Part shown: in pieces, positions 2,364 through 38,341 of the stretch
Position numbering within the stretch: the first letter of the stretch is position 1
Layout: each line of letters starts with the position of its first letter
DNA from: Myxococcota bacterium
GTDB lineage: Bacteria > Myxococcota_A > UBA9160 > PR03
Assembly (NCBI GenBank): GCA_041611735.1
Contig: JBFIML010000042.1
Location: forward strand, 1 to 40,058
Reading direction: 5' to 3'
DNA length: 40,058 nucleotides
Notes under the pieces: model-generated
The model's input: only the letters and a program-made list of their open reading frames with translations
Database searches by the model: none
Told to the model about the DNA's origin: nothing
Translations under genes and position numbers: made by a program

Positions 2364-2801
2364 TTGAAGAAGGATCTGCCGCACCGCTACCGCATGGCCG
2401 CCGAGACCGCCGCCGAGGGCGCCGTCACGCTCAGCGCCGCAGGCCTTGCGCCGCTCGAGAGCGCGGCCCCCGCCGAGTTCGGGGGTCCCGGCGACCGCTG
2501 GTCGCCGGAAACCTTGTTCGTGGCCGCGGTGGCCGACTGCTTCCTGCTCACCTTCCGTGCCATCGCCCGCAGCTCCGCCCTGCCGTGGACCCGGCTGCGC
2601 TGCGACGCCGAGGGCGTCCTCGAGCGCGCCGAGGGCGGGATCCGCTTCACGGCCGTCCACCTGCATGCTGCGCTCACGGTGCCGGGGGGCACGGACCCGG
2701 AGCGGGCGCGGCGGCTGCTGGAGAAGGCGGAGAAGGGCTGCCTGGTCTCGCGCTCCCTCGCCTGCCCGGTGCACCTCAAGGCGGAGGTGCGCGGCGGCTG
2801 A
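2364..2801 (+). CDS. OsmC/Ohr family protein
   Basis: TTG start after GGAGG. Contains PAEFGGPGDRWSPETLFVAAVADC and AEKGCLVSRSL (two conserved Cys). Confidence 0.88.
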   Translation: MKKDLPHRYRMAAETAAEGAVTLSAAGLAPLESAAPAEFGGPGDRWSPETLFVAAVADCFLLTFRAIARSSALPWTRLRCDAEGVLERAEGGIRFTAVHLHAALTVPGGTDPERARRLLEKAEKGCLVSRSLACPVHLKAEVRGG

Positions 2802-2819
2802 GAGCGCCGGGGCAGACCC

Positions 2820-3755: not shown

Positions 3756-3871
3756 GGACTTGCAGCTCCTGGAGGCACGCAGCGAGGGTAGCATCGGCCG
3801 ATGCGCCCCCGGCTCGCCCCGGCTGCGCGGCGCCGGGGCGCTCCCGAGCGCGGTCGTGACGTCGGGGCGCG

Positions 3872-4810
3872 TCAGTCCCGCGGGATCACGTGCTCGAGTC
3901 CGTGGCGCGCGATGCGGTGGCGAAGCGTGCTGCGGGGCAGGCCGAGGCGCCGTGCGGCGCGGGCCACGTTCCCCCCCGTCTGGGCCAGCGTGCGCGCGAT
4001 GACCTCCGGATCGTCCGGGGCCGGGCGCGGCGTGGGGCGGGTCGGCAACGCCCCCGGACGCTGCGCCTCCTGGAGGGCGCGCGCGTCGAGCGGAGCGCCG
4101 CGCCGCCGCACCAGCAGTCGCTCCAGCAGGTTCATGAGCTCGCGCACGTTGCCTGGCCAGGGACGGCGGCGCAGGCCCTCCAGGAAGTCCGGCGCGACCC
4201 GCGGCGTCGCCACCCCGAGCCGGGGTGCGATGCGGGACAACCCGCTCGCCACCAGCTCGGGCAGGTCGTCCAGACGCTCGCGCAGCGGGGGCAGCCGCAG
4301 CTCCACCACGGCGAGCCGGTAGAAGAGGTCCGGGCGGAAGTCGCCCTCCCGCACCGCCGCGGCGAGGTCGCGCGACGTGGCGGCCAGCACGCGTGCCCGC
4401 ATGGACAGCGTGCACGTGCCGCCCACCCGCTCGTACTCCCGGTCCTCGAGCACGCGAAGCAGCTTGGCCTGCAGCGGGGGCCCGAGCTCCGCGACCTCGT
4501 CGAGGAACACGGTTCCCGCGCCGGCGCGCTCGAAACGGCCGGCGCGGCGCTCGCTCGCCCCGGTGTAGGCGCCACGCTCGTGGCCGAACAGCTCGCTCTC
4601 GATCACCGTGGCCGAGAGCGCGGCGCAGTCCACGTGCACGAAGGGCGCGTCCCGGCGCGGCGAGCGGCGGTGGATCGTCCGCGCCACGAGGCCCTTGCCG
4701 GTCCCGGTCTCGCCGGTCAGGAGGACGGTGGAGTCCGTGGCGGCCACGGCGGCGAGGCTCGCCCGCACCGCCCGCACGCTGGCGCTGCTTCCGCAGGGTT
4801 CCCGGGCCAT
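3872..4810 (-). CDS. Sigma-54-dependent enhancer-binding protein (AAA+ plus Fis HTH) with no N-terminal sensor domain
   Basis: Walker [24 protein letters not shown] loop, Walker [23 protein letters not shown]-terminal [21 protein letters not shown]. Confidence 0.92.
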
Positions 4811-5004
4811 GGGCGCTCCTCCGTCGGGACCTCGGAAGTAGCGCGACCCGCCGGAGCGGGGTACGCCGGAAGCCGTTCGGGAGTGACGGGACCGCGTCGA
4901 CGCGGCGCGGCCTGCGACGGGCCGCGCCGGGGCGCGTCCGGGGCGGGTCGCCGGAGTCCGAACGCGACCGCATTCGTCACGGCGTTGGTGTAGAACATGC
5001 CGCC

Positions 5005-8000: not shown

Positions 8001-8304
8001 GCAGCGCGTCGAGATGGCGGACGAGCCGCTGCGCGCGCAGCTGCGCCAGGTCTCCCGCACGGTGCTCGCCGCCCGCGATGCGGGGGCGCTCTTTCCGCGT
8101 CTGGTCGAAGCCAGGCGCGACGCGGAGCCCCGGCGCTGCGGGTACTGCACGCTGCGGGCTGCCTGCCTGCGAGGAGAGAGCGCCCACCGCCGCCGCTTGC
8201 GCGCCTGGGCCCGCTCCGGACCGGACGCGGCCGAGGAGGGCGGGTCGCTGGGCGCCTTTCGAGCGCTCTGGTGGCTCGGTGCCGACGCCGGGGGGGACGC
8301 GTGA
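5005..8304 (+). CDS. addB: AddB-like subunit: inactive helicase domain plus PD-(D/E)XK nuclease with Fe-S cysteines
   Basis: ATG at 5005. Degenerate helicase motifs ([21 protein letters not shown]), nuclease RVDRVD...DYKT, Cys set GCPW...CGYC...C. Stop overlaps the next gene's start (GTGA). Confidence 0.82.
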
Positions 8305-11300: not shown

Positions 11301-11879
11301 GCCGCAGCTTCGGAGGGGCCGGAGCTCGGGGGTTGGGGAGACGGAGCCCTGGTGGCCACGGCGGTGGGCTCCGCGGTCCACGCGCTCCTCGAGCGCTTCG
11401 ACTGGTGCGCGGAAGAGAACGCCGAGCTGGCGCGCCAGCGGGAGCGATTCTCGGCGGACCTCGAACGCCGGGTGCCGCCCGCGCTGCTGCCCGACAGCCT
11501 GGCGCGGGGCGCCCGCCTGCTCGACGTCCTGGTGGAGGGGCCTCTCTGGCCACGGCTCCGGGCGATCGCCCCCCATGTGGTGGCGCGCGAGCTGCCGGTC
11601 TTGCTCCCGACGGAGGGCGCGGCGGAGGAGCCCCTCGAATACCTCTCCGGTGCCATCGACCTGGTCTACCGCGACGGCGAGCACGGCCACTTCGTGGTGG
11701 CCGACTTCAAGTCGGACGCCGTCAGCACGGAGCGGGAGATCGCGGCGCGGGTGCGTGCCTACGCGCCCCAGGCCATGAACTACGTCCGTGCGCTTCGGGA
11801 GGCTCTGTCCCTGGATGCACCGCCCCGCTTCGAGTTCTGGTTCCTCGAAGCGGGGCGGATCCAGCCGATGGCCGGCTAG
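8301..11879 (+). CDS. addA: AddA-like UvrD helicase with RecB-type nuclease
   Basis: GTG at 8301. Motifs EAGAGTGKT, ITFTEAAA, TIHGFC, VDEFQDT, VGDPKQSIYGWR, TIHQAKGLDF, YVALTRA, and nuclease GAIDLVY...DFKS. Confidence 0.9.
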   Translation: MSPSGADARDRDRAADARARQEAQTHFERPLVLEAGAGTGKTTVLVARVVAWCVGPGWEQAVRETAAKTPPHARSLAGRVLSGVVAITFTEAAAAEMESRVGQALRGLARGELPLGVAAHALPALAEASRRAAALLASLDRLVMRTIHGFCSRLLAAHALEAGIHPRFRVDGRGLERAGAVREAVEERLRTALEEGLDADLLVLAEHGKGPAELAEAVEALLEKGVSALDLAADPLDSGALEALAGRLRQALDALADAGLARLADGSRVSREATGWLESLRERLHARPPGDVAQWAELAQEVREEWPRPRKRVEAWSRSDLGERDRSCLADSAPALARAAAAAVPLLDHLGRFDPRLLGAALRVLHGLLDRAEAALRARGAESYAQLLRDARDLLADPVVRARVRRGIDQLLVDEFQDTDRLQCEIVAALSLDASPAGRPGLFLVGDPKQSIYGWRDADLRAYEDFVERVCAAGGERHRLCVNYRSDPAILAEVCRALEPVMTAEHGVQPAFEPLHPGVATTPGAAEPFAAVEYWITCERDARTGAFKRPLAHRAAEIEAQALAADLVRLQGFGVAWAEVGILLRATTDLDVYVDALREAGVPYVVDRDRSYARRREVLDAAALVRAVLDPNDQLALVATLRSAWVGVPDAAWRRLWERAFPARVRDALGGSAQALARATAVGAEVARLLPEDAVPGLARIPGWEHNLAHALRVLAVLRHSFLTDAPDRFVERLRTLSLLEAVEAARFPGPYRVANLERFFRELRAALEERNGDWSAVVRTLREGASDEGDVDEGRPREASGDAVQILTIHQAKGLDFGHVYLLQTHKGSGGGVGPSIRAETLDGQLDVQLFGAPSPGFDRVAAHRERVEQAERVRTLYVALTRARRRLVVAGSRSAEAGTHAEILARSRGPAAARAEQRLHESPAWVDDDGVRWVALVAPAQAPPAARRAPGVRLPPLARVEEDAHRLRLLRGEALARRARPRGGAASGKAHEQLRELLAAASEGPELGGWGDGALVATAVGSAVHALLERFDWCAEENAELARQRERFSADLERRVPPALLPDSLARGARLLDVLVEGPLWPRLRAIAPHVVARELPVLLPTEGAAEEPLEYLSGAIDLVYRDGEHGHFVVADFKSDAVSTEREIAARVRAYAPQAMNYVRALREALSLDAPPRFEFWFLEAGRIQPMAG

Positions 11880-11924
11880 AGGCGGCGCGTCCCGTTCGGG
11901 AGCGCGCCGCCGGGCTTGCCCGAC

Positions 11925-12230
11925 CTAGAAGCCGAAGCCGCTGCCGGCGATCAGGCTCGGCGGCAGCATGGGGAGCACCTGCGGCGGTCCGGTGCCGGGA
12001 AAGGCGAACAGGAAGTGCCCGTCGGCCCTTGCTCCGACCCGGTACAGGGTCGGCTGCGCCTTCTCGCCCGACCGGGCTTGCACGGCCTCCGTTTCCGGAG
12101 CGGCGGGCTTCTGCACATGCTCGGCGACCGGCGCCTGGCTCTCCTCCGGCGCTGCGCTCGCCGCGTAGACCGGTGCGGAGAGGATCAGGGCAACGCCCAC
12201 CACGGTTGCGGTTGCGATGGCTCTGAACAT
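11925..12230 (-). CDS. Small, probably secreted hypothetical protein (101 aa)
   Basis: ATG at 12230 preceded by AAGGAGG. Signal-peptide-like N-terminus (MFRAIATATVVGVALILSAPVYA). A sigma-54 promoter lies just upstream. Confidence 0.65.
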   Translation of the reverse strand: MFRAIATATVVGVALILSAPVYAASAAPEESQAPVAEHVQKPAAPETEAVQARSGEKAQPTLYRVGARADGHFLFAFPGTGPPQVLPMLPPSLIAGSGFGF

Positions 12231-12262
12231 CGAGATCCCTCCTTGCAGACACCCTCCCATAC

Positions 12263-12278
12263 AGCAAGGAGCGTGCCG
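12263..12278 (-). promoter_or_regulatory. Sigma-54 (-24/-12) promoter
   Basis: Minus strand reads CGGCACGCTCCTTGCT, matching YGGCACG-N4-TTGCW, about 32 nt upstream of the 12230 start. Confidence 0.8.
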
Positions 12279-12349
12279 ACCCGGGGGGCGCCCTCATCGG
12301 GCTCAAACGCCCTCTCGAGCCGTCCCGAGGTCCATCCGGCTGGCATGGG

Positions 12350-12403
12350 GTGCATTTTAATGATGCACATGCAACATCGAGATGCGAATCCGAATATTTC
12401 GGA
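12350..12403. promoter_or_regulatory. Candidate upstream activator (enhancer) sites
   Basis: Perfect inverted repeats GTGCAT-N7-ATGCAC (12350-12368; NtrC-like TGCA-N9-TGCA geometry) and TCCGAA-N3-TTCGGA (12389-12403), in an AT-rich stretch 70-125 nt upstream of the sigma-54 promoter. Confidence 0.55.
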
Positions 12404-12419
12404 GGCACCCTGGAATCCC

Positions 12420-13958
12420 CTAGGGGGATTTTCCGGGTTTTCGCGGGGACTGGGCTCCGCGGGGCCGGCGGGGACGGCGCCGCCGACGGGGAGGCGGTGG
12501 GGCTGCCAGCGGCTCGAAGAAGGTCTCGGGCCGTCCGCTGCGTCCCCGGCACACGTCGCAGAGGCCGCACGGGCTGCCGGCCTCCTCCCCGAAGTAGCCG
12601 CGCAGGAAGACCGCACGGCAGCTCTCGCTCCGGGCGTACTCGGACACCGCTTCGAGCCGCCGGTTGTCCTGGGTCCGCAGGGTCTCGAAGCGGCCCGCCA
12701 GCTGGCGGGCGCTCGGCTCCAGCTCCGCCGCGGGTAGCCCCACCTCGACCCGGTCGTCCCGGAAGCGTACGAACTCCGCCTGCTCCAGGACTGCGAGCAG
12801 CGCCATGGTGGTGCGCTCGCCGAGCTCCGCGGAGAGGGCGAGCGCTTCGACGCTGGGAGCCCGGCCCTCCCGGACCCACTCGGCCAGGGCGCGTCCCAAA
12901 AGGAACAGCTGCTCCGGCCGCACGCGGCTGCGCGCCAGCAGTGCCTCGTGCACGGTGCGGTCGCCCTCGTCGTGCAGCAGCAGGCAGTGGGCGCGACGGC
13001 CGTCGCGACCCGCTCGGCCTGCCTCCTGCACGTACTGCTCCAGGGAAGCCGGCGAGCGATGGTGGATCACGTAGCGGATGTCGGGCTTGTCGATCCCGAG
13101 ACCGAAGGCGCTGGTGGCCACCATCACCGTGCGGCGTCCCCGCCGCATGTAGAGCTCCTGCTCCCGGTTGCGCTCGGTGGCGGTCATGCGCCCGTGGTAG
13201 CGATGGGCGGGGATGTCGAAGCGGGCCAGCACCGCGTAGACCTCGTCCACCTCGCGCGTGGTGGAGCAGTACACGATTCCCGGCCGATGCAGGCGCCGGA
13301 CGAAACGGACCAATGCCCGCAGGCGCTCGTCGCCCCGGCACAGGATCGCCTCGAAGGCGAGGTTCGAGCGGTGCGGCGAGGCGGCCACCACGCTCGGCTG
13401 TCGCATGGCCAGGGCCCGCACCACGTCCTCGCGCACCGCGTCGGTGGCGGTGGCCGTGAGGGCCAGCACCGAGGGCCGGCCGAGTTCGCGCAGGTGCTCT
13501 CCCAGACGCAGGTAGGCGGGCCGGAAGTCGTGGCCCCACTCGGAGACACAGTGGGCCTCGTCCACCGCCGCCAGGGAGAGCCCGGCCTTGCGCAGCGCTT
13601 CGGCCGCGTCGCGGGCCGCCAGGGTCTCGGGGGTGGTCATGACGAGCAGCGAGCCGCCCTCGGCGATGCGGGCCAGCGTCGCCTCCCGGTTCCTGCCCCG
13701 CACGGTGCCGTCCAGCCGCACGCAGGGGATGCGTCGCGCCAGGAGCTTCTGGTGCTGGTCGCGCAGCAGGGCGAGCAGTGGCGAGACCAGTACCACCGGC
13801 CGGGCCAGCACCATGGACGGGATCTGGTAGCAGGCGGACTTCCCGAACCCGGTGGGAAGCACCACCAGCACGTCGCGGCCCTCGAGCACGTCCCGCACCA
13901 CGCGGGCCTGCTCGTCGTGCAGACGGGCGATGCCCAGGCGCCGGGCCGCCTCGCGCAC
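12420..13958 (-). CDS. recQ: RecQ-family ATP-dependent DNA helicase
   Basis: LPTGFGKSACYQIP, VDEAHCVSEWGHDFRPAY, ALTATA, YHGRM, VATSAFGLGIDK, YVQEAGRAGRDG, RQC Zn site (CR...CGLCDVC). Start uncertain. Confidence 0.92.
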   Translation of the reverse strand: MREAARRLGIARLHDEQARVVRDVLEGRDVLVVLPTGFGKSACYQIPSMVLARPVVLVSPLLALLRDQHQKLLARRIPCVRLDGTVRGRNREATLARIAEGGSLLVMTTPETLAARDAAEALRKAGLSLAAVDEAHCVSEWGHDFRPAYLRLGEHLRELGRPSVLALTATATDAVREDVVRALAMRQPSVVAASPHRSNLAFEAILCRGDERLRALVRFVRRLHRPGIVYCSTTREVDEVYAVLARFDIPAHRYHGRMTATERNREQELYMRRGRRTVMVATSAFGLGIDKPDIRYVIHHRSPASLEQYVQEAGRAGRDGRRAHCLLLHDEGDRTVHEALLARSRVRPEQLFLLGRALAEWVREGRAPSVEALALSAELGERTTMALLAVLEQAEFVRFRDDRVEVGLPAAELEPSARQLAGRFETLRTQDNRRLEAVSEYARSESCRAVFLRGYFGEEAGSPCGLCDVCRGRSGRPETFFEPLAAPPPPRRRRRPRRPRGAQSPRKPGKSP

Positions 13959-28813: not shown

Positions 28814-30448
28814 CTAGAAGGGGAGGTCCTCCTGCTCCGGCGGCTCGCCCGGCTCGCCGCGCAGGCGCCGGAACAGCTCGGCGATGGGAATCCGCGGCGC
28901 GCGCCATACAGAATTCCGGCTCGACCAGACCGGGCTCGTCCCGAACGGGTCGCCCATGGCCAGGGTGCGCGGGACGCGGTCGTCGAAGATCGCATCCCAT
29001 CTGCAGCGGTAGTGCTGGCGCTCCGGCTGGAGCCGCCGGATCCACGCGCCGCGCGCGGCCGCCCGGCCTCCGGCCGGCGGGTCGGTGACGGCGCTGGGCA
29101 CGTCGCCGATCCCGTCCACACGGTGCGCCAGCGCGCCGCCGGCGTCGAGCACCTCGAAGAGCCCCCGGGCGCCCAGCTCGCCGAAGCGCACGTCGGCCTC
29201 GAGCAGCTCCGCGCGCAGGGCGAGGAAATCGTCCAGGCGCTCCCAGGAGAGCCCGTGTTGGCCCATGTGGCGCTCCAGCTTCTCCACAGCGTCGATCACG
29301 GGTCCAAGCGGCTCGCGCAGCCGTGCACGCAGGGAGTCGCGGATTCCCACCCGGGTGCCAAGGCGCGCCGCCGCCTTCAGCCGGCGCAGCACGTGGGTCC
29401 AGGCGGGGAGCGATTCCCAGGCAACCCCGCGCCGCGCGGTGCGCCGCCGGAAGACGGCCAGCTTGATCGCCCAGTCGAGACGGTCGCTGAGCGAGCTCGG
29501 GTCCTCCTCGAGCTGGTCGAGCACCTGCCGCCAGGCCCGGCAGACGGCCTCGGCCCACGCCGGTAGCATGCGATGCCCGAGCTGCGCCTCGGCCGCCTGC
29601 AGGTAGTGCCTCTGGATCTCCACCGCCGTGCGCAGCGAGCCGTCGCGCCCGGCGGCGCGCCGCCGGCAGGTCGGATCGCCCGCGAAGGCCTGCAGGGCGT
29701 GGATCGGGCTGCGCAGGGCCACGGCATCGCCGCGGCAGACGCCCTGCTCGATCAGGCGGACCACCAGCGCGGTCGCGCCGAGCTTGAGAAAGGCGCCAAG
29801 CTGGGAGAACTGGCTCTCGCCCGCGATCACGTGGAGGCGGTGGTAGCCGCCTGCGCAGAGGGGCTCGTCCTTGCTGTGGTAGAGGGCGCGCTCGTGGGTC
29901 GAGCACGCGCCCACCTCCCGCCGCAGGTGAGCGGCCCGCGGCGAGAGCCGGAACAGCAGGCCGATCTTGGTGTTGTCGAAGCCACCCGCCCCCGTGTAGA
30001 CGATCCGCGACGCCAGGTGGGGGATCAGCTCCGGGGCCATCCGCGCCGGATCGCTGCGGTAGAGGTACGACTCGTGACAGCCCCAGGTCGCCCCGCTGGC
30101 GTAGTCCACGTTGTTCCGGAACAGCTGGACCCGGTCCGCCCCGGCGCGCTCCTTCAGCTCGCAGGCCGCGGCGAGCAGGATGCGCTCCCCGGCCAGCGTG
30201 TAGCGCACCACCTCCCGGGGATCGCTGCACTCGGGAGTGCTCAGCTCCGGGTGCCCCGCGTCGGCGTAGAGCCGCGACCCATTGGCCAGGAACAGGCCCG
30301 GTTCCACCCCGAACAGATGCGGATGGCGCTCGCCAGCGATCTGAACCAGCGCGTCGGCATCCGTGGAGGCGCAGCGCCGGCCCGCGCGTCCGAAGACGGC
30401 GAAGCCGTACTCGGTCTCCAGTCCGAACAGCAGGTCCGCCAGGTTCAC
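28814..30448 (-). CDS. pafA: Pup-protein ligase-like protein (PafA/Dop family)
   Basis: GLETEYG, FLANGSRLYADAGHPELSTPEC, NNVD...WGCHESY, RLHVIAGES, LKLGATAL, LDWAIK, C-terminal W...DPF. Lacks the Dop-loop. GTG start overlaps the pup stop. Confidence 0.85.
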   Translation of the reverse strand: MNLADLLFGLETEYGFAVFGRAGRRCASTDADALVQIAGERHPHLFGVEPGLFLANGSRLYADAGHPELSTPECSDPREVVRYTLAGERILLAAACELKERAGADRVQLFRNNVDYASGATWGCHESYLYRSDPARMAPELIPHLASRIVYTGAGGFDNTKIGLLFRLSPRAAHLRREVGACSTHERALYHSKDEPLCAGGYHRLHVIAGESQFSQLGAFLKLGATALVVRLIEQGVCRGDAVALRSPIHALQAFAGDPTCRRRAAGRDGSLRTAVEIQRHYLQAAEAQLGHRMLPAWAEAVCRAWRQVLDQLEEDPSSLSDRLDWAIKLAVFRRRTARRGVAWESLPAWTHVLRRLKAAARLGTRVGIRDSLRARLREPLGPVIDAVEKLERHMGQHGLSWERLDDFLALRAELLEADVRFGELGARGLFEVLDAGGALAHRVDGIGDVPSAVTDPPAGGRAAARGAWIRRLQPERQHYRCRWDAIFDDRVPRTLAMGDPFGTSPVWSSRNSVWRAPRIPIAELFRRLRGEPGEPPEQEDLPF

Positions 30449-30642
30449 TGCCCTCCGGTCTGGAGCAGGTCCCGCAGGAAGCGCTCGCTGTCTCCGGATT
30501 GGAAGCGGTCGATCGCTTCGTCGGAGACGGAGAGCAGGCGCTCCGCCCGCCGCCGCTGCTCCTCGCTCCGCGCCCGCCCGTCGCCCGGGCCCTCGGACGC
30601 CGGGCGTGCCTCGGGCTCCCGGGTTCGCTCATGCCGACTCAT
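30445..30642 (-). CDS. pup: Pup-like small protein modifier (65 aa) ending QTGGQ
   Basis: ATG at 30642 after GAGGAGGAG. Charged, low-complexity N-terminus; C-terminus SERFLRDLLQTGGQ resembles Pup's FVRAYVQKGGQ. Sits between the dop-like and pafA-like genes. Confidence 0.88.
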   Translation of the reverse strand: MSRHERTREPEARPASEGPGDGRARSEEQRRRAERLLSVSDEAIDRFQSGDSERFLRDLLQTGGQ

Positions 30643-32242
30643 GACTCTCCTCCTCTTCGTCGTCCTCGCCCAGCGGCGACAGCATCGCCCCGGGGTCGGC
30701 CGATCCTTCGAAGACTCCCGCGTTCTCGGTGCGCGTCGCGCCGAGCGGGTCGGGCAGGCGGGCGGCCAGGCGCAGGGAGCGGCCCTCGCCGTCCGCCAGC
30801 CGGAACACCACCCCGTCCCAGTCCACGTGCTCCACCTCGTCCGCGGCGCGCAACAGCATGGCCCGCGTCCAGGCGCGAGTGTCCTCGGGGGGCTCGTGGA
30901 CGCGATGCTCGATCTCGTCGTCGCCGACCAGGCGCTCCACCACGCCCGCGCGCTCGTAGGCCCAGTAGAGGCCCAGCTCCGGGTCCACGTGGGCGTAGAG
31001 GTGGTCCAGGTGCTTGAGGCCGGGCGCACGCCAGTCCAGCTCGGGTCGGCGCGCCCGCGCCCGCTCGAGCGCCCGGAGCTTCAGCACCCAGTCGAGGCGA
31101 CTGGCGAGTGCGTCCAGATCCGCGTCGCGCAGCCGGAGCAGCGTGTCCTCCCAGGCATCGAGCAGCGCGTCTGCCTCCGGCACGCCCGCCAGCCCGCCCG
31201 CCGCATGGGCGTGGCGCGCTGCCTCCAGAAAGCCGAGCTGCAGCTCGACCGCGGTCGGGTTGCCCCCGAGCAGCAGGCGTGCCCGTGCCCGCAGCGTCGG
31301 GTCGCAGCTCCAGCGGCGGAGCGCCCCGAGCGGGTCCTCCAAGACCAGGCGCGGTTCCACGGCGTCCAGCTCGAGCATCGCCAGCACGATCTGCATGACG
31401 CCGACCTTGAGCCAGCTCGCCACGTGACACAGGGTGCTGTCGTAGAAGATGCAGTGGAGGCGGGCGTAGCCGGTGCCCGGGGCGCGGGTGGGCGGGCCGC
31501 ACAGGGGCTCGTCGCGGGAGTTCACCAGCGGGCGCCGGAAGGTCGTCTGCGGTCCGCACAGGGTCTCGAAGAAGTCGGCGCGCTGGCTGATCTGGTACGG
31601 CACCCAGGGCACCCCGTTCTCGGCGCCCACCTTGCCCTGCCCCGCGAAGACGATGCTCGAGACCTGGTAGGAGGCCAGGAACGCCAGATAGTGCGGGCGC
31701 CGCTCGAAGAGGTTGCCCCACGCGGTGCGCGTCAGCAGGAAGTTGAGGTGGCTGCCGAAGGAGTTCGAGTGCCCATCCGAGTTGTTGACGAGCAGCTCGA
31801 TCCGCTCGCCGGCGGGGAGCCGGGCGTTGGCGCGGATCCGCGCCTGGCGCGCGATCCGGATCATCGCGTGGGTGGCCACCAGGTGGTCGCGGGCGCTGCG
31901 CACCTCGGGCACGCACAGCTCGAGGTGGTCCAAGTCCACGTAGACGCAGCCGCCATTGGAGGCCAGGAACTTCCGGCCCCAATCCTGGGGGTCCTCGCCC
32001 TCCGCGGTGTATCCGGCCCTGCGCAGCGTGCCCCCTGCCAGGCGGATCGCGCGCCGCACGGGACGGACCCCGTCCACCTCGCGCAGCAGCAGCCGGGCGG
32101 CCTCGGCGCCCGTCCCTCCCGGACGTCGACGCCCCTCGACGAAGTTGGCCAGCTCGAAGTCGCCTCCGCACAGCTTGGGCAGCTGGTGCACCGGGGCGTC
32201 AGTCTCGACTTCTCGCACGCTGCCTACCTCTCCCGGCCGCAC
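30629..32242 (-). CDS. dop: Pup deamidase/depupylase-like protein (Dop/PafA2)
   Basis: CGGDFE, long Dop-loop-like insert, NGGCVYVDLDHLE, NNSDG...FGSH, QISQRADFF...TTFRRPLVNSRDEP, LDWVLK, WRAPGLKHLD..Y, PPEDTRA, WDGVVF. Alternative GTG start at 32218. Confidence 0.83.
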   Translation of the reverse strand: MRPGEVGSVREVETDAPVHQLPKLCGGDFELANFVEGRRRPGGTGAEAARLLLREVDGVRPVRRAIRLAGGTLRRAGYTAEGEDPQDWGRKFLASNGGCVYVDLDHLELCVPEVRSARDHLVATHAMIRIARQARIRANARLPAGERIELLVNNSDGHSNSFGSHLNFLLTRTAWGNLFERRPHYLAFLASYQVSSIVFAGQGKVGAENGVPWVPYQISQRADFFETLCGPQTTFRRPLVNSRDEPLCGPPTRAPGTGYARLHCIFYDSTLCHVASWLKVGVMQIVLAMLELDAVEPRLVLEDPLGALRRWSCDPTLRARARLLLGGNPTAVELQLGFLEAARHAHAAGGLAGVPEADALLDAWEDTLLRLRDADLDALASRLDWVLKLRALERARARRPELDWRAPGLKHLDHLYAHVDPELGLYWAYERAGVVERLVGDDEIEHRVHEPPEDTRAWTRAMLLRAADEVEHVDWDGVVFRLADGEGRSLRLAARLPDPLGATRTENAGVFEGSADPGAMLSPLGEDDEEEESHESA

Positions 32243-33916
32243 TCACGCGGCCTCGACGTAACGGTGGGCGCGCCGCAGGCGCGACGAGTCGCGCTCCACG
32301 CGCACCACGTCCACGTCGTCGGGCAGATCGTCCAGATGGGCGCGCACGTTGCGCACCGTCAGCGTCGAGCGCAGCCGCTCGATCGCGTCGTCCACGCCGT
32401 CGAGGACGTCCTCCACCCGCAGCCCCGCCGTGTCGCCGCGCTCGTCGTGGCTGGCGAAGGCACGTTCCCTGGCGTGCAGGCAGATCTGCTGGATGACCCG
32501 CCCGCTCATCAGGTCGCGCGCCCGCACCGGGCGCGTGCGGCCGTCGCGCAGGTGCAGCGTGCCCAGACCACTGTCCCCGTTGGGGGAGTAGAGGCGGGTG
32601 AGCGCCGCCTCCACCAGCTCCCCGCGCGTCGCGTCGGGGGCGTAGGGGAGCTCTCGACCCAGGTGCACCTCGAAGATGCCGCGCGCCTCGCGGCGATCGG
32701 GCCGGCCGATGGCGATCTCCACGTCGCAGATGCGGCTCAGGAAGGCGGGATCGAGCAGGTCCTTGCGGTTGGTGGCCGCGATCAGCGCCACGTCACCGCG
32801 CTCGGCGAAGCCATCGATCTCGGCCAGCAGCGCGGCGAGGAACTTGTCGGACAGGTGCGCAGCGGGTCCTCCGCGAACGCGCGCGACCGCCTCCACCTCG
32901 TCGAGGAAGAGGATCGCCGGGGCGCCGTCGCCGGCCGCCCGCCGCAGGGCCGCGAAGCACTCGCGGATGCGCGCCTCGGTCTCGCCGACCCAGGGGCTCT
33001 CGAACTCGCCCGGCCGCACCACCGCGAAGTGGCAGGGGCGACCGCTGGCTCGCCGGATCTGCGCGGCAGCGACCCGGGCGCGCAGCGTCTTTCCGCAGCC
33101 CGGTGGACCGTGCAGGAGGATGCTGCGGCGTCCCGCGAGCCCGTAGCGCCCGGCCCGCTCGGGGGCGAGCAGGCGGCCGGTCAGGACTTCGTGCAGCCGC
33201 CGCAGGGAGTCGCCGCCGCCGCCCACCGCTTCGAGCGGCAGGTCCGGGACCTGCTCGACCCGGAAGCCGCCGGTCTCGGCCGGTTGGATGCGCTCCAGGG
33301 CCAGGCGGGCGGCGCGATCGACCAGCAGGCGGTCGCCCGGGCGCAGCGCCTCCGGTTCGAGCGTGGCGGCGGCGTCCACCAGCCACTCCTCGTCGCGCCA
33401 GCGGACCGTGAGTCGCCCGTCCGCGGCGAGCCGCTCGAACAGCACGGTGTCGCCCAGCCCCCGGGGCGGCTCGCCGTCGCGCGCCACGATCAGCGCAAGC
33501 GCGTCGTTGAGGAAGACGGCGTCTCCCGGGCGCAGTGCGTCGGCCTCCAGCCCCGGGGCCAGCTTGACGACGCGCGGCCCGTTCGCCGCCTGCACCAGCG
33601 CGCGTCCCTCGGCAGCGGGCTCGACCCGCCGCAGCATGCGCGCCGGGTGCCAGGGCGGGGCGCAGATCTCCTCCACCAGCGCCCGCAGCTCCCGCTGCGC
33701 GCCCTCGAGCCGCAGCAACGTCCTGCGCTGGGCGTGCAGCCGCTCGAGCAGGCGCCGGTCCAGCTCGGCTCCCAACTCGCGCGAGCGGTTGCGCAGCGTG
33801 CTCAGGTGGGTCAGCACGTCGCCCAGCAGGGCGGGGTCGCGGTCCATGGCCGCGACGAGGTCGTCGATCTCCTGGGCTGCGGGATGGCGGGGGCGCATGG
33901 GACCTCCGGAAGTCAC
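32243..33916 (-). CDS. arc: ARC/Mpa-type proteasomal AAA+ ATPase
   Basis: N-terminal coiled coil, then two OB-like segments (LRPGDAVFLNDAL; LRPGDRLLVD...ALERI). VPDLPLEAVGG, GPPGCGKT, pore loop WVGETE, FLDE, ATNRKDLLDPAF. Alternative ATG at 33898. Confidence 0.88.
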   Translation of the reverse strand: MTSGGPMRPRHPAAQEIDDLVAAMDRDPALLGDVLTHLSTLRNRSRELGAELDRRLLERLHAQRRTLLRLEGAQRELRALVEEICAPPWHPARMLRRVEPAAEGRALVQAANGPRVVKLAPGLEADALRPGDAVFLNDALALIVARDGEPPRGLGDTVLFERLAADGRLTVRWRDEEWLVDAAATLEPEALRPGDRLLVDRAARLALERIQPAETGGFRVEQVPDLPLEAVGGGGDSLRRLHEVLTGRLLAPERAGRYGLAGRRSILLHGPPGCGKTLRARVAAAQIRRASGRPCHFAVVRPGEFESPWVGETEARIRECFAALRRAAGDGAPAILFLDEVEAVARVRGGPAAHLSDKFLAALLAEIDGFAERGDVALIAATNRKDLLDPAFLSRICDVEIAIGRPDRREARGIFEVHLGRELPYAPDATRGELVEAALTRLYSPNGDSGLGTLHLRDGRTRPVRARDLMSGRVIQQICLHARERAFASHDERGDTAGLRVEDVLDGVDDAIERLRSTLTVRNVRAHLDDLPDDVDVVRVERDSSRLRRAHRYVEAA

Positions 33917-34956
33917 GCCGCGACGGGCTCCGGCGCCGCGGGGGTTTCGAGCCGGTGGAAGCCCCGCTCGACGAGCAGGCCCGCGCGCCAGCCGTACAGG
34001 GTGGTGAGCAGCTCGCCCGCGCCCCGATCGGTGACCAGCAGCGCCACCTGGTACGGGGCCGGGAAGCAGGCGCGCTGGAGCAGGCGGTCCTCCTGGCTGA
34101 GGAAGGGGCCGCGCAGCGCGCAGCGCGGGCGCCGCGCCGGCGGGCAGCGGCGGCAGAAGTGCGGGTGGTGGTGCTCGAAGCCGACCATCAGCTCGCCGGC
34201 GCCGCGGCGCTCGACCGCACGACGCGCGTCGGCCCAGGCCTCCGGCGTGAAGGTGAAGCTGGCCGAGGTGGCCTCGGTGTGGCGGGTGAGCACCAGGGCG
34301 GTGATCTCGAGGAACACGTCGGCCGGCACCGCCGAGCGGTGCAGCCTGCCCAGCAGCACGCCGCCCGTCTCGACCTCGGGCGACAGGCGCGCCATGTCGA
34401 GCGCCTGCTCCAGCACCGCGGCGTGCACGAAGACCGGGTGGTCGCCGGGGTCGGGAGCGGCGGCCGCCGTGGAGCGGGTCAGGAAGCCGTCGAGCGAGCC
34501 GGAGACCAGCGGGAGCGGGCGTCGCTCCTCCGCGAACTGGAGGCCCGCCGCGCCGGCGGCGGGCGGCTCCGGCGCGTCACTGGGGAAGGCGCAGACGCGG
34601 TAGCGATAGCGCTCGCCCGCCTCGAGAGCGCCGGACTCGACCAGCAGCGACGAGCCCGCCTCGGCCAGCGGGCGGAAGAAGGCCGGCGACACCTCCGCCG
34701 CGAGCGAGGCACCCGCGGGCCGCGCGCGCGGCTCGATGCGAACGCCCGCCAACCAGGGCGGTCCGTCGCGGGGGTCCCACAGCGGGACGACGTCGGAGCC
34801 CTCGCCCGGCACCACCGCAGGCAGCGCGCCGCGGCGGATGCCCTGGAACTCGGCCCAGGCGCAGGCCGGCTCGAAGTCCGGCTCCACCGCGATCGCGCCG
34901 AGGGCGCGGCCGTCGAGGGCCGAGTAGCGGATGGTGTAGCGGTAGGGGGGGCTCAT
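33913..34956 (-). CDS. JAB/MPN+ metallo-isopeptidase with an N-terminal extension
   Basis: ETGGVLLG (catalytic Glu), GFEHHHP (HxH) and FLSQED (SxxD), with a CRRC...C insert between HxH and SxxD. Confidence 0.85.
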   Translation of the reverse strand: MSPPYRYTIRYSALDGRALGAIAVEPDFEPACAWAEFQGIRRGALPAVVPGEGSDVVPLWDPRDGPPWLAGVRIEPRARPAGASLAAEVSPAFFRPLAEAGSSLLVESGALEAGERYRYRVCAFPSDAPEPPAAGAAGLQFAEERRPLPLVSGSLDGFLTRSTAAAAPDPGDHPVFVHAAVLEQALDMARLSPEVETGGVLLGRLHRSAVPADVFLEITALVLTRHTEATSASFTFTPEAWADARRAVERRGAGELMVGFEHHHPHFCRRCPPARRPRCALRGPFLSQEDRLLQRACFPAPYQVALLVTDRGAGELLTTLYGWRAGLLVERGFHRLETPAAPEPVAA

Positions 34957-34966
34957 GGATCCTCGA

Positions 34967-35000
34967 GCCGGATCCCCGGCCCGGGGGCCGGGGATCCGGC
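34967..35000. repeat. Perfect 16-bp inverted repeat (stem-loop) between ubl and jab
   Basis: GCCGGATCCCCGGCCC-GG-GGGCCGGGGATCCGGC. No U-tract on the minus strand. Confidence 0.9.
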
Positions 35001-35005
35001 GGGCG

Positions 35006-35281
35006 TCAGCCAGCCATGATGTGGGGCGAGATCGTCATCTCGTCGCCGCTTGCGAGGGTGTCACCCACCAGCTCCGAGGCGTGCAGGTGGCGCCCCTCGC
35101 GCTCGAGACGCGCGCGGTAGCTCATGGGCCTTCCTTCGGTGTCCGCCGACACGAGCCCCATGCGCGCGACCGCGTCGCTCAACAGCTCGGCGATGGTCCA
35201 CTCGCGCGGTACCCGTGAGATGCGCACGCGCTTCTGGCCGGTGACGTCCAGGGCCCAGAGGTCGAGAGTCTTTTCGGACAT
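35006..35281 (-). CDS. Ubiquitin-like (beta-grasp) protein, 91 aa, ending in Gly
   Basis: ATG at 35281 after GGGAG. Pattern of two strands, helix (TIAELLSDAVARMGL), strand, GRHL, LASGDEMTI, C-terminal IMAG. Neighbours are E1, E2 and JAB genes. Confidence 0.8.
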   Translation of the reverse strand: MSEKTLDLWALDVTGQKRVRISRVPREWTIAELLSDAVARMGLVSADTEGRPMSYRARLEREGRHLHASELVGDTLASGDEMTISPHIMAG

Positions 35282-35298
35282 GGCTTGGGGGTCTCCCT

Positions 35299-36222
35299 TC
35301 AAAGGGCGCTCGGGCCGGTCTCCTTGACCGGTCCGGGCGCACGGTGGTTCTCGCGCCGCCTCACTCGCGGCATCGGGCCGAGCAGTGCGAGGTAGGCGCG
35401 CGCCAGCGCCTCGTCGCCGGCCAGCGCCGCGACCTCGCGGGCACAGTGCCGGGCCGCGATCGACAGCGCCGCGAGCGCGTGGTGCAGCTCGCGCGGCGCA
35501 GCGCCGCGGCCGGTCACCGCCTCCAGCCCCACCTGGACCCTGCCGTCGCTCTCGCCGGCCGTGGCGCGCACGAGGCGGAAGGCCCCGCTCGCCCGCAGCA
35601 GCATCTCGCCCAGGGCGCGGCGACAGGCACGCGAGGGGGACTCCACCGCGCACAGCGCGACGTGCCAGCGGGTCCCCCCGCCGACATCGCGCTCGCCGCA
35701 GGCGGCCAGCACCGCGTGCGGCACCTCGAGCCGCACCCGAGGGGCGGCACCAAGCTCGCAGGGCCAGTCCGTCTCGCGCAGGGCATCGCCCAGCGACTCG
35801 TCGTCGGGTCCGGCATCTGGTGCCGCCGCCCGCGTCATGCGCCCGCCGCCGCCCAGAGCGAGCGCGGCGGCGTCGGCGAGACCGGCGCGGATCTCCGCCA
35901 GGCGCTCCTCGAACGGGCAGTCCGCGTCGAGGGGCAGCTCCGCACAGGCGTGGAGCAGAGGTGCCCGCCCCCGCAGCGCGAGCCTCGCGCCCCCCGCGAA
36001 GCCCGCGTTGGCGCCCAGCAGCGACCAGGGCGACTCGCGCCGGCCGCCGAGGGCCAGGGCGAAGAGCAGGAAGCCGTCGGCCGTGCGGGCCGTCCCCGAC
36101 GCCACCCGACGGCGGCCGACCGGCACGGCGATGCGCCAGCGCGCCCCGCCCTCCGGGGTCCCGCCGAGCAGGCGCTCGACGGCGGGCCCCGCCACCGCGG
36201 CGTACGGGCTGCATGCGATCAT
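35299..36222 (-). CDS. Hypothetical protein (307 aa), possibly tandem YbjN/T3SS-chaperone-like domains
   Basis: ATG overlaps the E2 stop (ATGA). Fills the gap in the operon. Two similar segments: PWSLLGANAGFAGGARL and GEMLLRASGAFRLVRA. Fold call is inference. Confidence 0.65.
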   Translation of the reverse strand: MIACSPYAAVAGPAVERLLGGTPEGGARWRIAVPVGRRRVASGTARTADGFLLFALALGGRRESPWSLLGANAGFAGGARLALRGRAPLLHACAELPLDADCPFEERLAEIRAGLADAAALALGGGGRMTRAAAPDAGPDDESLGDALRETDWPCELGAAPRVRLEVPHAVLAACGERDVGGGTRWHVALCAVESPSRACRRALGEMLLRASGAFRLVRATAGESDGRVQVGLEAVTGRGAAPRELHHALAALSIAARHCAREVAALAGDEALARAYLALLGPMPRVRRRENHRAPGPVKETGPSAL

Positions 36223-36713
36223 CGCGGGGCCTCGCAAGCGGAGCGGCCCTTCAGGGGACGCCGGTCCACGGGCAGGCGCTGCGGGTGATTGCGCGCCCAC
36301 TGGCACGCGGCGCGGTTCAGGGCGTCGTCGTCCCGGACCGTGAGGGCCTGGAAGGTGAGGACCTCGTAGACCCGGTAGATCAGCTCGACCAGCGGTGTGC
36401 CTGGCGCCACGGCACCCAGGCAGATCAGGTGCTCGTACACGTTGGGATGGAACACGTGGCGGGGCTCCAGCAGCGTGATCAGCTGCGCGGCCTCGACCCG
36501 GCGCAGGTAGTCGTCGCCGAGCCAGAAGCCCACCGTGAAGCCCTCGGTGGCGCGGGGCTGGCCACCCGGGTCCGCCACCAGGGTGCTGGCCACGAACCTG
36601 GCCACGAAGCGCTCCGCGTCGAGCCGCAGCACCTGGAGGATGGGCGACCGGGCCGCCAGGGCCGCGGCCTGGCGGTGCTGGGTGTCGCGAAAGCTCTCCA
36701 GGATGGTGTCCAT
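36219..36713 (-). CDS. Ubiquitin-conjugating enzyme E2-like protein
   Basis: VFHPNVYEHLICLG (HPN motif plus Cys98) and a C-terminal DDALNRAACQW matching the E2 'PLN.EAA' helix. RBS GGAG. Confidence 0.85.
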   Translation of the reverse strand: MDTILESFRDTQHRQAAALAARSPILQVLRLDAERFVARFVASTLVADPGGQPRATEGFTVGFWLGDDYLRRVEAAQLITLLEPRHVFHPNVYEHLICLGAVAPGTPLVELIYRVYEVLTFQALTVRDDDALNRAACQWARNHPQRLPVDRRPLKGRSACEAPR

Positions 36714-36722
36714 GGTTTCTCC

Positions 36723-37826
36723 TCAGGCAACCGCCGCATCGGCGGAGGGCGGCAGGCCTTCCGCGCAGGGCAGGCGCTGCTCCAGCAGCTCGTAGTCGCG
36801 CGTACCCCAGGCGCACTCGAGGCACGCGACGGACTCGTCCGGCAGCACCGCCGTGACCCGCGTGAGCAGGTCGCCCGCATCGATGGCGGCGTCGAACAGC
36901 GGGACGCCCAGGCGGAAGGCGATCTCGTTGGCGCGCTGGCGCGCGCCGCGATTGTCCAGGCAGCTCACCAGCGCCGTGCCGCGGAACTGCCCCCAGGGCA
37001 CCGCCTCGAGCCGCGCCACCTGCGGATGCACCTCGAGGCGCGGCTCGATGCGCCGCATGCGCTCGGCCTGGACCAGGGCCTTGGGGCGGCCCAGGTCACC
37101 CGGCTCGATGGCCTGCCCGGCGAGATTCCCGGGCTCGTAGCCGTCGAAGTCCACCAGGATCGCGCGCCGCAGCCAGCCGCTGCGAGCGAGGGTGGCGCAC
37201 AGATGGGAGCCGATCGCGCCGCAGCCGAGCACCGCCACGCCGGCGCCGCAGCGCGCGGGCGCGTCGGGCAGCTCCAGGTGGACGGGCCCTCCCGCGCCGT
37301 GCAGCGTGACCACGTCGCCCGGAGCCAGCCCCAGCTTCGCCAGCGGGAGGTCGCAGCGCGCCGCGAGCATCTGCGTGGCGAGATGCGGGTGTAGCTCGAA
37401 GCCGCGCACGGCCAGCAACGCGCCGCAGCCCCGGCAGGTGCGGTCGCCGGCGGAGAGGCGCGCAAGCGGTCGCCAGAGCGCGTTCACCGCTCCGCACGCG
37501 GGGCAGCGCAGCTCGCCCACGAAGACGTGACCCGGCAAGGACGCCGTCACGTCGCCGCCTGCCTCGGCCTCGGCGAGGAGCTCGCCGACGCAGCGGGCCG
37601 TCGCCGTGCGGATGCGCATCCGGCGGTGATCGAACCGGCAGTGCGGATTGCGCGGGATGCGGGTCACCAGCTGCCGGTGGCCGCCGAGCTCGCGCATGCG
37701 CTCGAAGCCCACACCGGCGCGCCCGAAGTCACTGGCGTCGAGGGCCGTCAGGGCCAGCGCGAGCTCCGCCGCAGCCAGCTCCGCGAGCGCGGCCGGAGCC
37801 CGGGTCGGGGCGACGGGGGGCATCAT
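36723..37826 (-). CDS. ThiF/E1-like activating enzyme, apparently circularly permuted
   Basis: The adenylation core (GCGAIG, VDFD, NLAGQ, GRPK, CLDNRGAR, CLEC, LPC) is C-terminal. The normally C-terminal part (PT..PA helix, RNPHCRFDH, CPAC/CRGC, LAKLGLAPGDVV) is N-terminal. ATG at 37826 after GGAGGAG. Confidence 0.85.
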   Translation of the reverse strand: MMPPVAPTRAPAALAELAAAELALALTALDASDFGRAGVGFERMRELGGHRQLVTRIPRNPHCRFDHRRMRIRTATARCVGELLAEAEAGGDVTASLPGHVFVGELRCPACGAVNALWRPLARLSAGDRTCRGCGALLAVRGFELHPHLATQMLAARCDLPLAKLGLAPGDVVTLHGAGGPVHLELPDAPARCGAGVAVLGCGAIGSHLCATLARSGWLRRAILVDFDGYEPGNLAGQAIEPGDLGRPKALVQAERMRRIEPRLEVHPQVARLEAVPWGQFRGTALVSCLDNRGARQRANEIAFRLGVPLFDAAIDAGDLLTRVTAVLPDESVACLECAWGTRDYELLEQRLPCAEGLPPSADAAVA

Positions 37827-38341
37827 GCCGGCTCCTCCGGCACCCAGCGCAGGCCGTCCCCGAGCGCGCTCGGCGCGCCGCACGCGGCACAGGGACCGTA
37901 CGAGAAGCACGCCAGCGCCTCGCTCTCGTGGAGCCACACGCCGCAGGCCGGGCAGCAGACGGCCGTGTCGCCCGCCACGATCGGCCGGGTGCAGCGCGGG
38001 CAGGGCGGGGCGTCGCCACGCGGGAAGGGCTCCATGCGCGCGGTGCGCTCTGCCGAAACCACGTAGCGGACACCGTCAGGTAGGTCGACCTCATCGCGGT
38101 CTGCCAGGGCGGCGATGCCCGTGGCGAGCGGGGCGCCATTCAGGCGCACGCCGCTGCCGGGTGCTGCCAGCAGGAACCAGCCGGCGCGGTCGCCCTCCCC
38201 CCGGGCGAGCAACGGCCCGGCCCGCGCCGTCCCGTCCGGCGGCTCGAGGCGCGCCCCGGCGCTCCCTGCCCGCAGGGCGTAGCGGCTTCCTGCCAGGCGC
38301 CGCGGCTCCCAGAACCCGTTCGAGCGTACGAAGCAGCGCAC
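37823..38341 (-). CDS. FHA-like domain plus prokaryotic RING-like zinc finger (putative E3)
   Basis: GTG at 38341 after GGAGGGAG. VRLNGAPL..GIAALADRDEV resembles an FHA C-terminal half. C4HC3 pattern CPRC...CPAC-x4-H-x6-C-x5-CAAC. Confidence 0.75.
   Translation of the reverse strand: MRCFVRSNGFWEPRRLAGSRYALRAGSAGARLEPPDGTARAGPLLARGEGDRAGWFLLAAPGSGVRLNGAPLATGIAALADRDEVDLPDGVRYVVSAERTARMEPFPRGDAPPCPRCTRPIVAGDTAVCCPACGVWLHESEALACFSYGPCAACGAPSALGDGLRWVPEEPA

Follow-up and report, generated by a model that had tools for sequence, protein, structure and literature searches.

A conserved bacterial gene cassette combining ubiquitin-type and Pup-type conjugation genes with one ARC-type AAA+ ATPase gene

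The sequence analysed here (the window, 40,058 nucleotides or nt) corresponds to contig C42 of a Myxococcota genome that totals 4.09 Mb in 118 contigs (G+C ~74%; assembly ~95% complete). Its minus strand carries at 28814-38341 a cassette of ten co-oriented open reading frames (ORFs), in which genes of a ubiquitin-type conjugation system (a RING-type protein, E1, E2, a ubiquitin-like protein or Ubl, and a JAB isopeptidase) are combined with those of a Pup-type system (a Dop-like enzyme, a Pup-like tag and a PafA-like enzyme) and with a single Mpa/ARC-type AAA+ unfoldase. The gene content and order of this cassette, its conservation in other genomes, the intact catalytic motifs and the fold assignments are established below. 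We infer from these the individual biochemical steps, a shared target for the two tags and the biological role. The reading preferred here, to which a probability of about 0.5 is given, is that the cassette couples the two types of conjugation around the one unfoldase, as a single pathway.

Gene content, order and conservation of the cassette

The ten ORFs fill the interval in the following order along the transcript, with the evidence for each assignment in brackets.

37823..38341, minus strand: FHA-RING, a protein with an FHA fold and a predicted C-terminal binuclear zinc finger of the Prok-RING_1 type, candidate E3 (model, Foldseek, alignment)
36723..37826, minus strand: E1-like adenylating enzyme, with an N-terminal part of ~190 residues containing two CxxC pairs, followed by a ThiF domain (PF00899)
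36219..36713, minus strand: E2 (UBC-like), with an HPN motif and Cys98 (alignment, PDB profile search)
35299..36222, minus strand: protein X, predicted tandem YbjN/type III secretion system (T3SS)-chaperone-like (TY-Chap) fold (model, Foldseek)
35006..35281, minus strand: 91-residue Ubl with a C-terminal Ala-Gly and one conserved lysine, K17 (alignment)
33913..34956, minus strand: JAB/MPN+ isopeptidase, with an N-terminal domain of ~170 residues; its JAMM motif is interrupted by an insert that contains Cys (alignment, PDB profile search)
32243..33916, minus strand: ARC/Mpa-like AAA+ unfoldase without the proteasome-docking tail (Pfam, NCBIfam, alignment)
30629..32242, minus strand: Dop-like member of the Pup_ligase family (PF03136, tree)
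30445..30642, minus strand: 65-residue Pup-like tag with a GGQ end and no lysine (position, C-terminus, PDB profile search)
28814..30448, minus strand: PafA-like member of the Pup_ligase family, with an insert of ~55 residues (PF03136, tree)

Overlaps of 4 nt join RING to E1 and E2 to X (both ATGA) as well as JAB to ARC and the Pup-like to the PafA-like gene (both GTGA). ARC and the Dop-like gene abut (gap 0), the Dop-like and Pup-like genes overlap by 14 nt, and the remaining spacings are 9 nt (E1 to E2), 17 nt (X to Ubl) and 49 nt (Ubl to JAB). An earlier note, prepared from the letters of the sequence, had described ten co-oriented minus-strand genes with these junctions, and every junction proved exact on re-checking. 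The RING gene starts with GTG, preceded by a GGGAGG-like site. An intergenic scan gave neither a sigma-70-like promoter nor a convincing terminator inside the cassette. A crude coding filter based on third-position G+C (GC3) was passed by 6/10 cassette genes as longest ORFs; the RING, X, Ubl and Pup ORFs are nested within longer spurious ORF calls of the 74% G+C DNA, and their coding status therefore rests on conservation across genomes.

A search of 185,579 species genomes gave 143 relatives of the E2, and conservation was examined in the best 80 loci. Gene presence was scored by tblastn with the ten window proteins, and the denominators given here count the loci with enough room for the gene or set concerned. 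All 80 loci come from metagenome-assembled genomes (MAGs) and, by a tally of record titles, they bear at least eight phylum-level labels: Acidobacteriota-type (39 loci), Gemmatimonadota (15), Planctomycetota (8), 'delta proteobacteria' (2), Eisenbacteria (2), Gammaproteobacteria-type (2), Bifidobacteriaceae (2, a doubtful label), Verrucomicrobiota, Omnitrophota, Binatia and Acidimicrobiia (one each) and unclassified (6). RING was present in 65/69 loci, E1 in 66/69, Ubl in 67/68, JAB in 64/65 and ARC in 62/63. At least one ligase gene was found in 58/59 loci and two ligase genes in 46/53, and a small ORF ending in G[EQ] followed the Dop-like gene in 57/58. The gene order was the same almost everywhere, with the JAB and ARC genes adjoining in nearly every locus, and the whole set lay on one strand in 42 of the 50 loci with room on both sides.

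The reverse test started from the Pup side: Pup_ligase genes were searched in two phyla (those of genomes G409 and G410) and their neighbourhoods were then read. In the first phylum, 8 of 251 genomes gave Pup_ligase matches, of which four were ubiquitin-coupled, three were of a high-scoring type (one checked, with PrcBA present, and two assigned from scores and spacing) and one was of another kind. In the second, matches were obtained in 16 of 301 genomes: seven ubiquitin-coupled (one very divergent and one at a contig end), seven of the high-scoring type (two checked, with PrcBA present, and five assigned indirectly) and two solitary ligase homologues. Among the non-canonical Pup_ligase genomes of the two phyla, the ubiquitin-type half thus lies beside the ligases in 11/14. 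The earlier note had called for a check of the ten-gene order in other genomes and had regarded halves that never co-occur as fatal to its reading; linkage was seen from both the E2 and the Pup sides. On these observations the two halves form one conserved unit, not a chance neighbourhood.

The cassette is nevertheless rare and patchily distributed. In the phylum of the window itself, 5/400 other genomes gave weak E2 matches, and 1/12 genomes of the same family (G405) carries the full cassette, with 39-56% identity to the window proteins; the prevalence of the coupled cassette in the two other phyla is 4/251 and 7/301. Divergent forms were also encountered. L131 (genome G415) and L132 (G430) are subtypes in which the Dop-like protein is closer to canonical Dop (375-389 bits), and the cassette of L139 (G859) is 21-31% identical to the window proteins. 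In L069 (ARC and Dop) and L086 (ARC) the tblastn matches consist of several short fragments, which suggests decay or frameshifts.

The encoded proteins

The N-terminal domain of the first product was assigned an FHA fold on its structural model (predicted local distance difference test, pLDDT, 91.8); a predicted zinc finger follows it. Foldseek matched the N-terminus to FHA domains with probability 1.0 (including Chk2, Rv1747 and RNF8). Eight zinc ligands (C114, C117, C130, C133, H138, C145, C151 and C154) are conserved, all of them in the window copy. Prok-RING_1 (PF14446) was matched by 40/44 aligned RING relatives; the window copy gave no match to this model at E<=0.1. A search of the PDB with the RING profile gave weak matches to PHD and RING-H2 fingers (E 0.006-0.4).

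The E1 matched PF00899 (ThiF) with 77.4 bits over residues 197-352, and 25/25 of its PDB sequence matches are E1-like enzymes (ThiF, SAE2, UBA3, MoeB, UBA5 and MccB). The GxGxxG motif, the CxxC motifs and C353 are conserved in 41 sequences. The ThiF domain terminates 14 residues past C353, which leaves the final ~60 positions of the Pfam model uncovered; by its position C353 would be the catalytic cysteine. HMMER weakly aligned one N-terminal CxxC to the CxxC that E. coli ThiF carries at its C-terminal end, which hints at a possible circular permutation.

The E2 homologues fall into 71 clusters. Across 37 sequences H89, P90, N91 and C98 vary little or not at all; the HPN motif and active-site cysteine expected of a UBC-like conjugating enzyme are in place. 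In the PDB 24/27 profile matches are E2 enzymes (best E 4.8e-4), and UQ_con (PF00179) was matched by 15/37 E2 relatives, with the window copy unmatched.

In the Ubl, A90 and G91 are invariant and K17 is nearly so (45 sequences); K17 was found in 88% of 67 Ubl sequences. The relatives have their C-terminus either at Ala-Gly or at Ala-Gly plus a few more residues, and the latter would require trimming. YukD (PF08817) was matched by 14/45 relatives and not by the window copy, and the PDB search with the Ubl profile gave weak end-to-end matches to MoaD and SAMP1 (E 0.028-0.36).

The JAB protein carries the JAMM metal site (E...HxH...S..D), with E196, H262, H264, S287 and D290 invariant in 41 sequences. 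All 35 of 35 PDB matches of its profile are JAMM enzymes (AMSH, Rpn11, BRCC36, CSN5 and an archaeal Rpn11-like protein). The window copy scored 20.3 bits against Prok-JAB (PF14464), under the cut-off of 25. For the N-terminal domain, ESM gave a weak lead to fvmJAB_N.

Protein X gave no match to Pfam, NCBIfam or PADLOC models. Its structural model (pLDDT 90.8; predicted template-modelling score, pTM, 0.86) consists of two halves with a predicted YbjN/T3SS-chaperone-like fold. In single-domain Foldseek searches the halves matched YbjN, AmyR, SpcU, VecA and PA14_16140 with probabilities of 0.97-1.0 and TM-scores (TMt) of 0.57-0.69, and the ESM Atlas gave YbjN/CesT leads with scores of 0.83-0.85. 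ARPC2 was also considered as a match and was dropped, its E value of 5e-4 being accompanied by a TM-score of just 0.22. Given this peptide-binding chaperone fold, which has been seen only in cassette context so far, X may hold a disordered tag or substrate.

The ARC protein contains Pfam matches to AAA, Prot_ATP_ID_OB_N and Prot_ATP_ID_OB_C. Its best NCBIfam model is TIGR03689 (pup_AAA), with 244.7 bits against a cut-off of 504.75. An alignment of 61 sequences shows conserved Walker A and Walker B motifs and a conserved aromatic pore loop. A GQYL tail serves for docking to the proteasome; the C-terminus of the cassette ARC is of a conserved HRY type, whereas the canonical ARC of the same genome ends in GQYL.

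The Dop-like enzyme scored 299.6 bits against PF03136 and 253.1 bits against TIGR03688 (cut-off 492.3). Some positions that are fixed in canonical Dop and PafA bear conserved substitutions in its clade. They belong to the first strand motif and to the motifs surrounding NG..Y.D and H.N, and the enzyme may catalyse something other than plain depupylation. The PafA-like enzyme scored 307.8 bits against PF03136, in two stretches, and 228.1 bits against TIGR03686 (cut-off 551.3); in the alignment its clade retains the core motifs of the canonical enzymes.

The Pup-like tags of 58 loci end in GGQ (40), GGE (17) or SGQ (1). By the known chemistry of pupylation, the 41/58 that end in Gln need a deamidase. 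The top six PDB matches of the profile are Pup (best E 8.8e-4), aligned through the final residue. PF05639 was matched by 7/45 Pup-like relatives at E<=1, and the window copy is unmatched.

The ten identities proposed in the earlier note hold, and the motifs that it took as diagnostic are conserved across relatives; two identities were refined, the RING protein to an FHA fold with a zinc finger and X to a predicted tandem YbjN/T3SS-chaperone fold. The search with profiles for each ORF, also suggested there, gave direct matches for E1, ARC and the two Pup_ligase proteins and a sub-cut-off match for JAB; at the level of Pfam it failed for the window copies of RING, E2, X, Ubl and Pup.

Canonical pupylation, known systems and genomic neighbours

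The window genome contains three sets of Pup_ligase pairs: that of the cassette and those on contigs C10 and C88. The set on C10 (L128, ~45800-52040) is a canonical locus comprising ARC with a GQYL end, Dop, a typical Pup, PrcB, PrcA and PafA. Pup_ligase matches were obtained in 20/21 relatives, most of which have canonical Dop (~590 bits) and PafA (~500 bits). A ligase tree was calculated by a quick maximum-likelihood search with a midpoint root from 73 of 141 rows (one cassette locus in three, together with each canonical row and each opposite-strand copy). In this tree the Dop-like clade is sister to canonical Dop and the PafA-like clade is sister to canonical PafA (approximate likelihood-ratio test, SH-aLRT, 96 each), and the branches between cassette and canonical clades measure 1.45-1.54 changes per site. 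Genes for PrcA and PrcB were found in 0/80 cassette loci, and a bacterial 20S beta subunit scored above the curated cut-off in 2/15 other carrier genomes (G408 and G405).

The set on C88 (L127, a 7.7-kb contig) is a cassette-type Dop/Pup/PafA trio at 2477-5768, without ARC or ubiquitin-type genes. Its Dop-like and PafA-like proteins are 56% and 42% identical, respectively, to those of the window, and a 68-residue Pup-like ORF with a GGQ end lies at 3990-4196. On its flanks are a sigma-factor-like gene and a gene pair for an ArsR-type regulator and a glyoxalase. A search for a further ARC of the cassette type that might serve this trio found none; the extra AAA matches on C108, C17 and C67 look FtsH-like.

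Like the canonical Pup-proteasome system of Actinobacteria, the cassette has two Pup_ligase paralogues, a GGQ/GGE tag encoded between them and a double-OB AAA+ ATPase, and to this extent the assignment to pupylation in the earlier note stood. Unlike that system, it comes without proteasome genes and without GQYL, misses the four equivalog models and is separated by the long branches given above. Membership of the canonical Pup-proteasome system was therefore rejected on the equivalog cut-offs, the lack of GQYL and the lack of linked prcB/prcA.

Prokaryotic operons of the E1-E2-RING-Ubl-JAB kind were reportedly described by Burroughs, Iyer and Aravind in 2011. The ubiquitin-type half resembles them in that its relatives match Prok-RING_1 (40/44), YukD (14/45) and UQ_con (15/37); in the cassette the operon runs on into ARC and then into the genes for the Dop-like enzyme, the Pup-like tag and the PafA-like enzyme. 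Single bacterial operons also encode E1, E2, Ubl and JAB-type enzymes in the defence systems Bil, Bub and CBASS Cap2/Cap3, and the window E1 gives partial Cap2-type matches. They differ in that the E1 and E2 of the cassette are separate, in that a RING-type protein, X, ARC and the Pup-like branch are added, and in the absence of a match to a PADLOC system. In layout, and in layout only, the cassette resembles the 26S regulatory particle (Rpn11 on the Rpt ring) and the E1/E2/RING/Rpn11-like operon of Caldiarchaeum, in that genes for a JAMM enzyme and for an AAA+ ATPase of proteasomal type are paired; unlike these, it has a second, Pup-like tag, and most of its carriers are without a detected 20S. 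The succession of an FHA fold and a binuclear zinc finger recalls the eukaryotic FHA-RING ligases RNF8 and CHFR, and the FHA domain of RNF8 is among the fold matches. The cassette finger is, however, probably of the Prok-RING_1 type and phosphothreonine-binding residues are not evident, and the likeness is probably convergent.

The earlier note had supposed the combined architecture to be undescribed. This does not stand: one sentence in the main-text passages of Kaur et al. (2020; PMC7159879) mentions a tri-ligase Ubl system coupled to Pup-conjugation genes, names Thermofonsia and Planctomycete as the lineages and takes this as favouring a connection of Ubl conjugation with degradation. The coupling of E1, E2, RING and JAB with Pup genes is the same as here, and the ubiquitin-type half is already represented in Pfam by Prok-RING_1 and YukD. 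Those passages contain no gene list, whereas here 80 loci are documented gene by gene, and protein X, the FHA fold, the tag of Pup type and the absence of a linked 20S are described in addition. Among the main texts searched for the combination, this work was the sole mention. Relevant passages of Chambers et al. (2023; PMC10557695) describe rare bacterial RING-type E3s, citing Burroughs 2011, without mention of Pup or AAA; those of Iyer et al. (2008; PMC2588565) report Pup from outside Actinobacteria and make no link to E1/E2; and the queried terms are absent from the passages of a 2025 minireview on Pup (PMC12288473). The coupling was thus noticed in silico before, and what is new here is the gene-by-gene documentation of a conserved unit.

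Several genes recur next to the cassette. A sigma-54 enhancer-binding activator adjoins it in 21 loci (e.g. L025:4543-6267 and L036:6522-8207). Sigma-54-like -24/-12 sites occur at <=300 nt upstream of the first gene in 7/66 loci, mostly of Gemmatimonadota, against ~0.4 expected from the rest of the loci; the window has no such site upstream of its first cassette gene. A small protein with a weak winged-helix match was found in 25 loci. In 15 loci (including L055, L067, L077, L090, L026 and L079) the cassette is succeeded, often on its own strand, by a gene for an AAA protein of ~380 residues whose lid is of the Clp type (AAA_lid_9); this gene stands immediately behind the PafA-like or, in four loci, the Pup-like gene. 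A third PafA-like gene is present in eight loci, and L129 (G602) has three PafA-like genes. The extra copies (L079, L082, L086, L090 on the opposite strand, and L129), among them a third Pup_ligase of ~700 residues in Acidobacteriaceae loci, fall inside the cassette PafA-like clade of the tree. NACHT or TIR-NACHT-TPR genes lie near the cassette in 12 loci (including L041:1100-3871 and L057:3624-7175; one with DUF4062 and one TIR-NACHT-TPR), and these NACHT/STAND NTPase neighbours hint at a conflict-system neighbourhood.

In the window itself, a histidine kinase gene follows the PafA-like gene and a divergently oriented gene of 362 codons without a Pfam match lies upstream of the cassette; UbiA, an enoyl-CoA hydratase, an AIG2-like gene and a regulator are encoded further out. 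No mobile-element or defence genes were found in these flanks. A separate stretch of 7.6 kb (4810-12420; 75-77% G+C) contains no ORF that passes the crude GC3 filter. PADLOC gave no system-level match for the cassette; its partial matches were those of E1 to E1-E2 fusion models, of JAB (E 0.047) and of the AAA protein to IetA/TRIP13. Viral contigs gave 18 pattern matches, none encoding an E2 relative.

Proposed working and alternative readings

In the proposed pathway, the E1 would adenylate the C-terminal Gly of the Ubl and hand it to the E2 cysteine, with the FHA-fold/zinc-finger protein serving as a candidate E3. JAB would trim Ubl precursors with residues past Ala-Gly and would later take the Ubl off again. 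In the other branch, the Pup-like tag would be deamidated at its terminal Gln by the Dop-like enzyme and joined to a lysine by the PafA-like one. The ARC-like hexamer would then grip the Pup-like tag through a coiled coil and thread the tagged protein, while JAB would strip the Ubl at the ARC pore, like Rpn11 on the eukaryotic proteasome. The adjacency of the JAB and ARC genes nearly everywhere, and their overlap in the window, suggest by analogy with Rpn11 and Rpt that the Ubl is stripped at the unfoldase. Since the cassette encodes no peptidase and most carriers have no detected 20S, the target is probably unfolded, disassembled or inactivated, or else passed on to an unlinked protease. The role may be that of a regulated stress or conflict response, in which proteostasis and defence appear equally credible, each somewhat short of an even bet.

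A more specific form of this pathway is a composite degron, in which the Ubl would sit on the target, the lysine-free Pup-like tag would be attached on or beside K17 of the Ubl as the threading handle for ARC, and JAB would work on the ARC ring, giving a 19S-like particle without a 20S. The lysine-free tag and the single conserved Ubl lysine make a Pup-on-Ubl tag an attractive speculation, which we regard as quite improbable as it stands.

Several findings weigh against a single pathway. Of the 50 loci with complete flanks, 8/50 deviate from the full set: RING and E1 were undetected in L023 and L051, L038 ends after X, and in L055, L067, L075, L077 and L090 the second ligase is not immediately downstream (in L075 and L090 it is elsewhere in the locus, on the opposite strand). 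The C88 trio implies that the Pup half can stand alone, at least to judge from an assembly that is 95% complete. The changes in core motifs throughout the Dop-like family mean that its activity may differ from that of Dop. All four NCBIfam equivalog cut-offs were missed, and no Pfam model was matched by the window RING, E2, Ubl and Pup-like proteins. The conserved residues to which phosphothreonine binding by FHA domains is usually ascribed are not evident in the RING alignment. The canonical rows of the ligase tree come solely from the order of the window genome, and the search was a quick one. The 20S beta subunit went undetected in 13/15 other carriers, for which MAG completeness is not given, and it is accordingly recorded as 'not found'. 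That both tags reach the same targets, or that one is placed on the other, is suggested by gene linkage.

That the adjacency is accidental or an assembly artefact, with two unrelated operons abutting, might be suspected of a genome in 118 contigs, and misassembly had been named in the earlier note as a possible refutation. This was ruled out for practical purposes: a contig from an independent study (X5, record 13) spans 32053-34805 with 0 differences, crossing the Dop/ARC and ARC/JAB junctions, and the same order recurs in 42/50 independent loci. A weightier alternative is that two tagging systems are co-regulated and biochemically independent, each with its own targets, with ARC acting for the Pup-like branch only. 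It would account for the stand-alone trio on C88 and for the RING/E1/E2/JAB operons without Pup genes that passages of Kaur et al. (2020; PMC7159879) describe in other systems, and the sigma-54 activator genes (21 loci) and sites (7/66 loci, ~0.4 expected) fit joint regulation. However, the order fixed over at least eight phylum-level labels and the JAB-ARC adjacency are more than shared regulation needs, and from the Pup side the ubiquitin-type half accompanies 11/14 non-canonical ligase genomes; independence is therefore considered rather unlikely.

A further alternative concerns the role only and is compatible with the proposed mechanism. The cassette could be an anti-invader (phage or conflict) system, in which the Ubl would be placed on invader proteins as in Bil and the Pup-like/ARC branch would unfold or remove them. 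The patchy distribution (5/400 weak E2 matches, 1/12 family genomes, 4/251 and 7/301), the NACHT or TIR-NACHT-TPR neighbours in 12 loci, the weak fvmJAB_N lead and the relation of the ubiquitin-type half to that of the FtsH-vWA-MoxR conflict systems (passages in Kaur et al., 2020; PMC7159879) are consistent with such a role. PADLOC nevertheless matched E1, JAB and AAA in part and no whole system, the window flanks lack mobile-element and defence genes, and none of the viral contigs encodes the E2. An anti-invader role is on balance a tentative possibility, less likely than not. The preferred reading, coupling of the two conjugation types in one pathway, is plausible from gene linkage.

Ubiquitin-type and Pup-type tagging are of unrelated chemistry and are taught as separate inventions. 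In the cassette both chemistries are hard-wired in one operon around a single unfoldase, mostly in lineages without a detectable proteasome. If the two tags cooperate, this would represent a new logic of targeted protein removal in bacteria, a proteasome-independent Pup branch outside Actinobacteria and a simple model of how a deubiquitinase and an AAA+ ring come to work together. The composite degron, if true, would make the cassette a bacterial counterpart of the 19S particle without a 20S core, and would show in a living system how ubiquitin recognition could have come together with AAA+ unfolding ahead of the eukaryotic proteasome.

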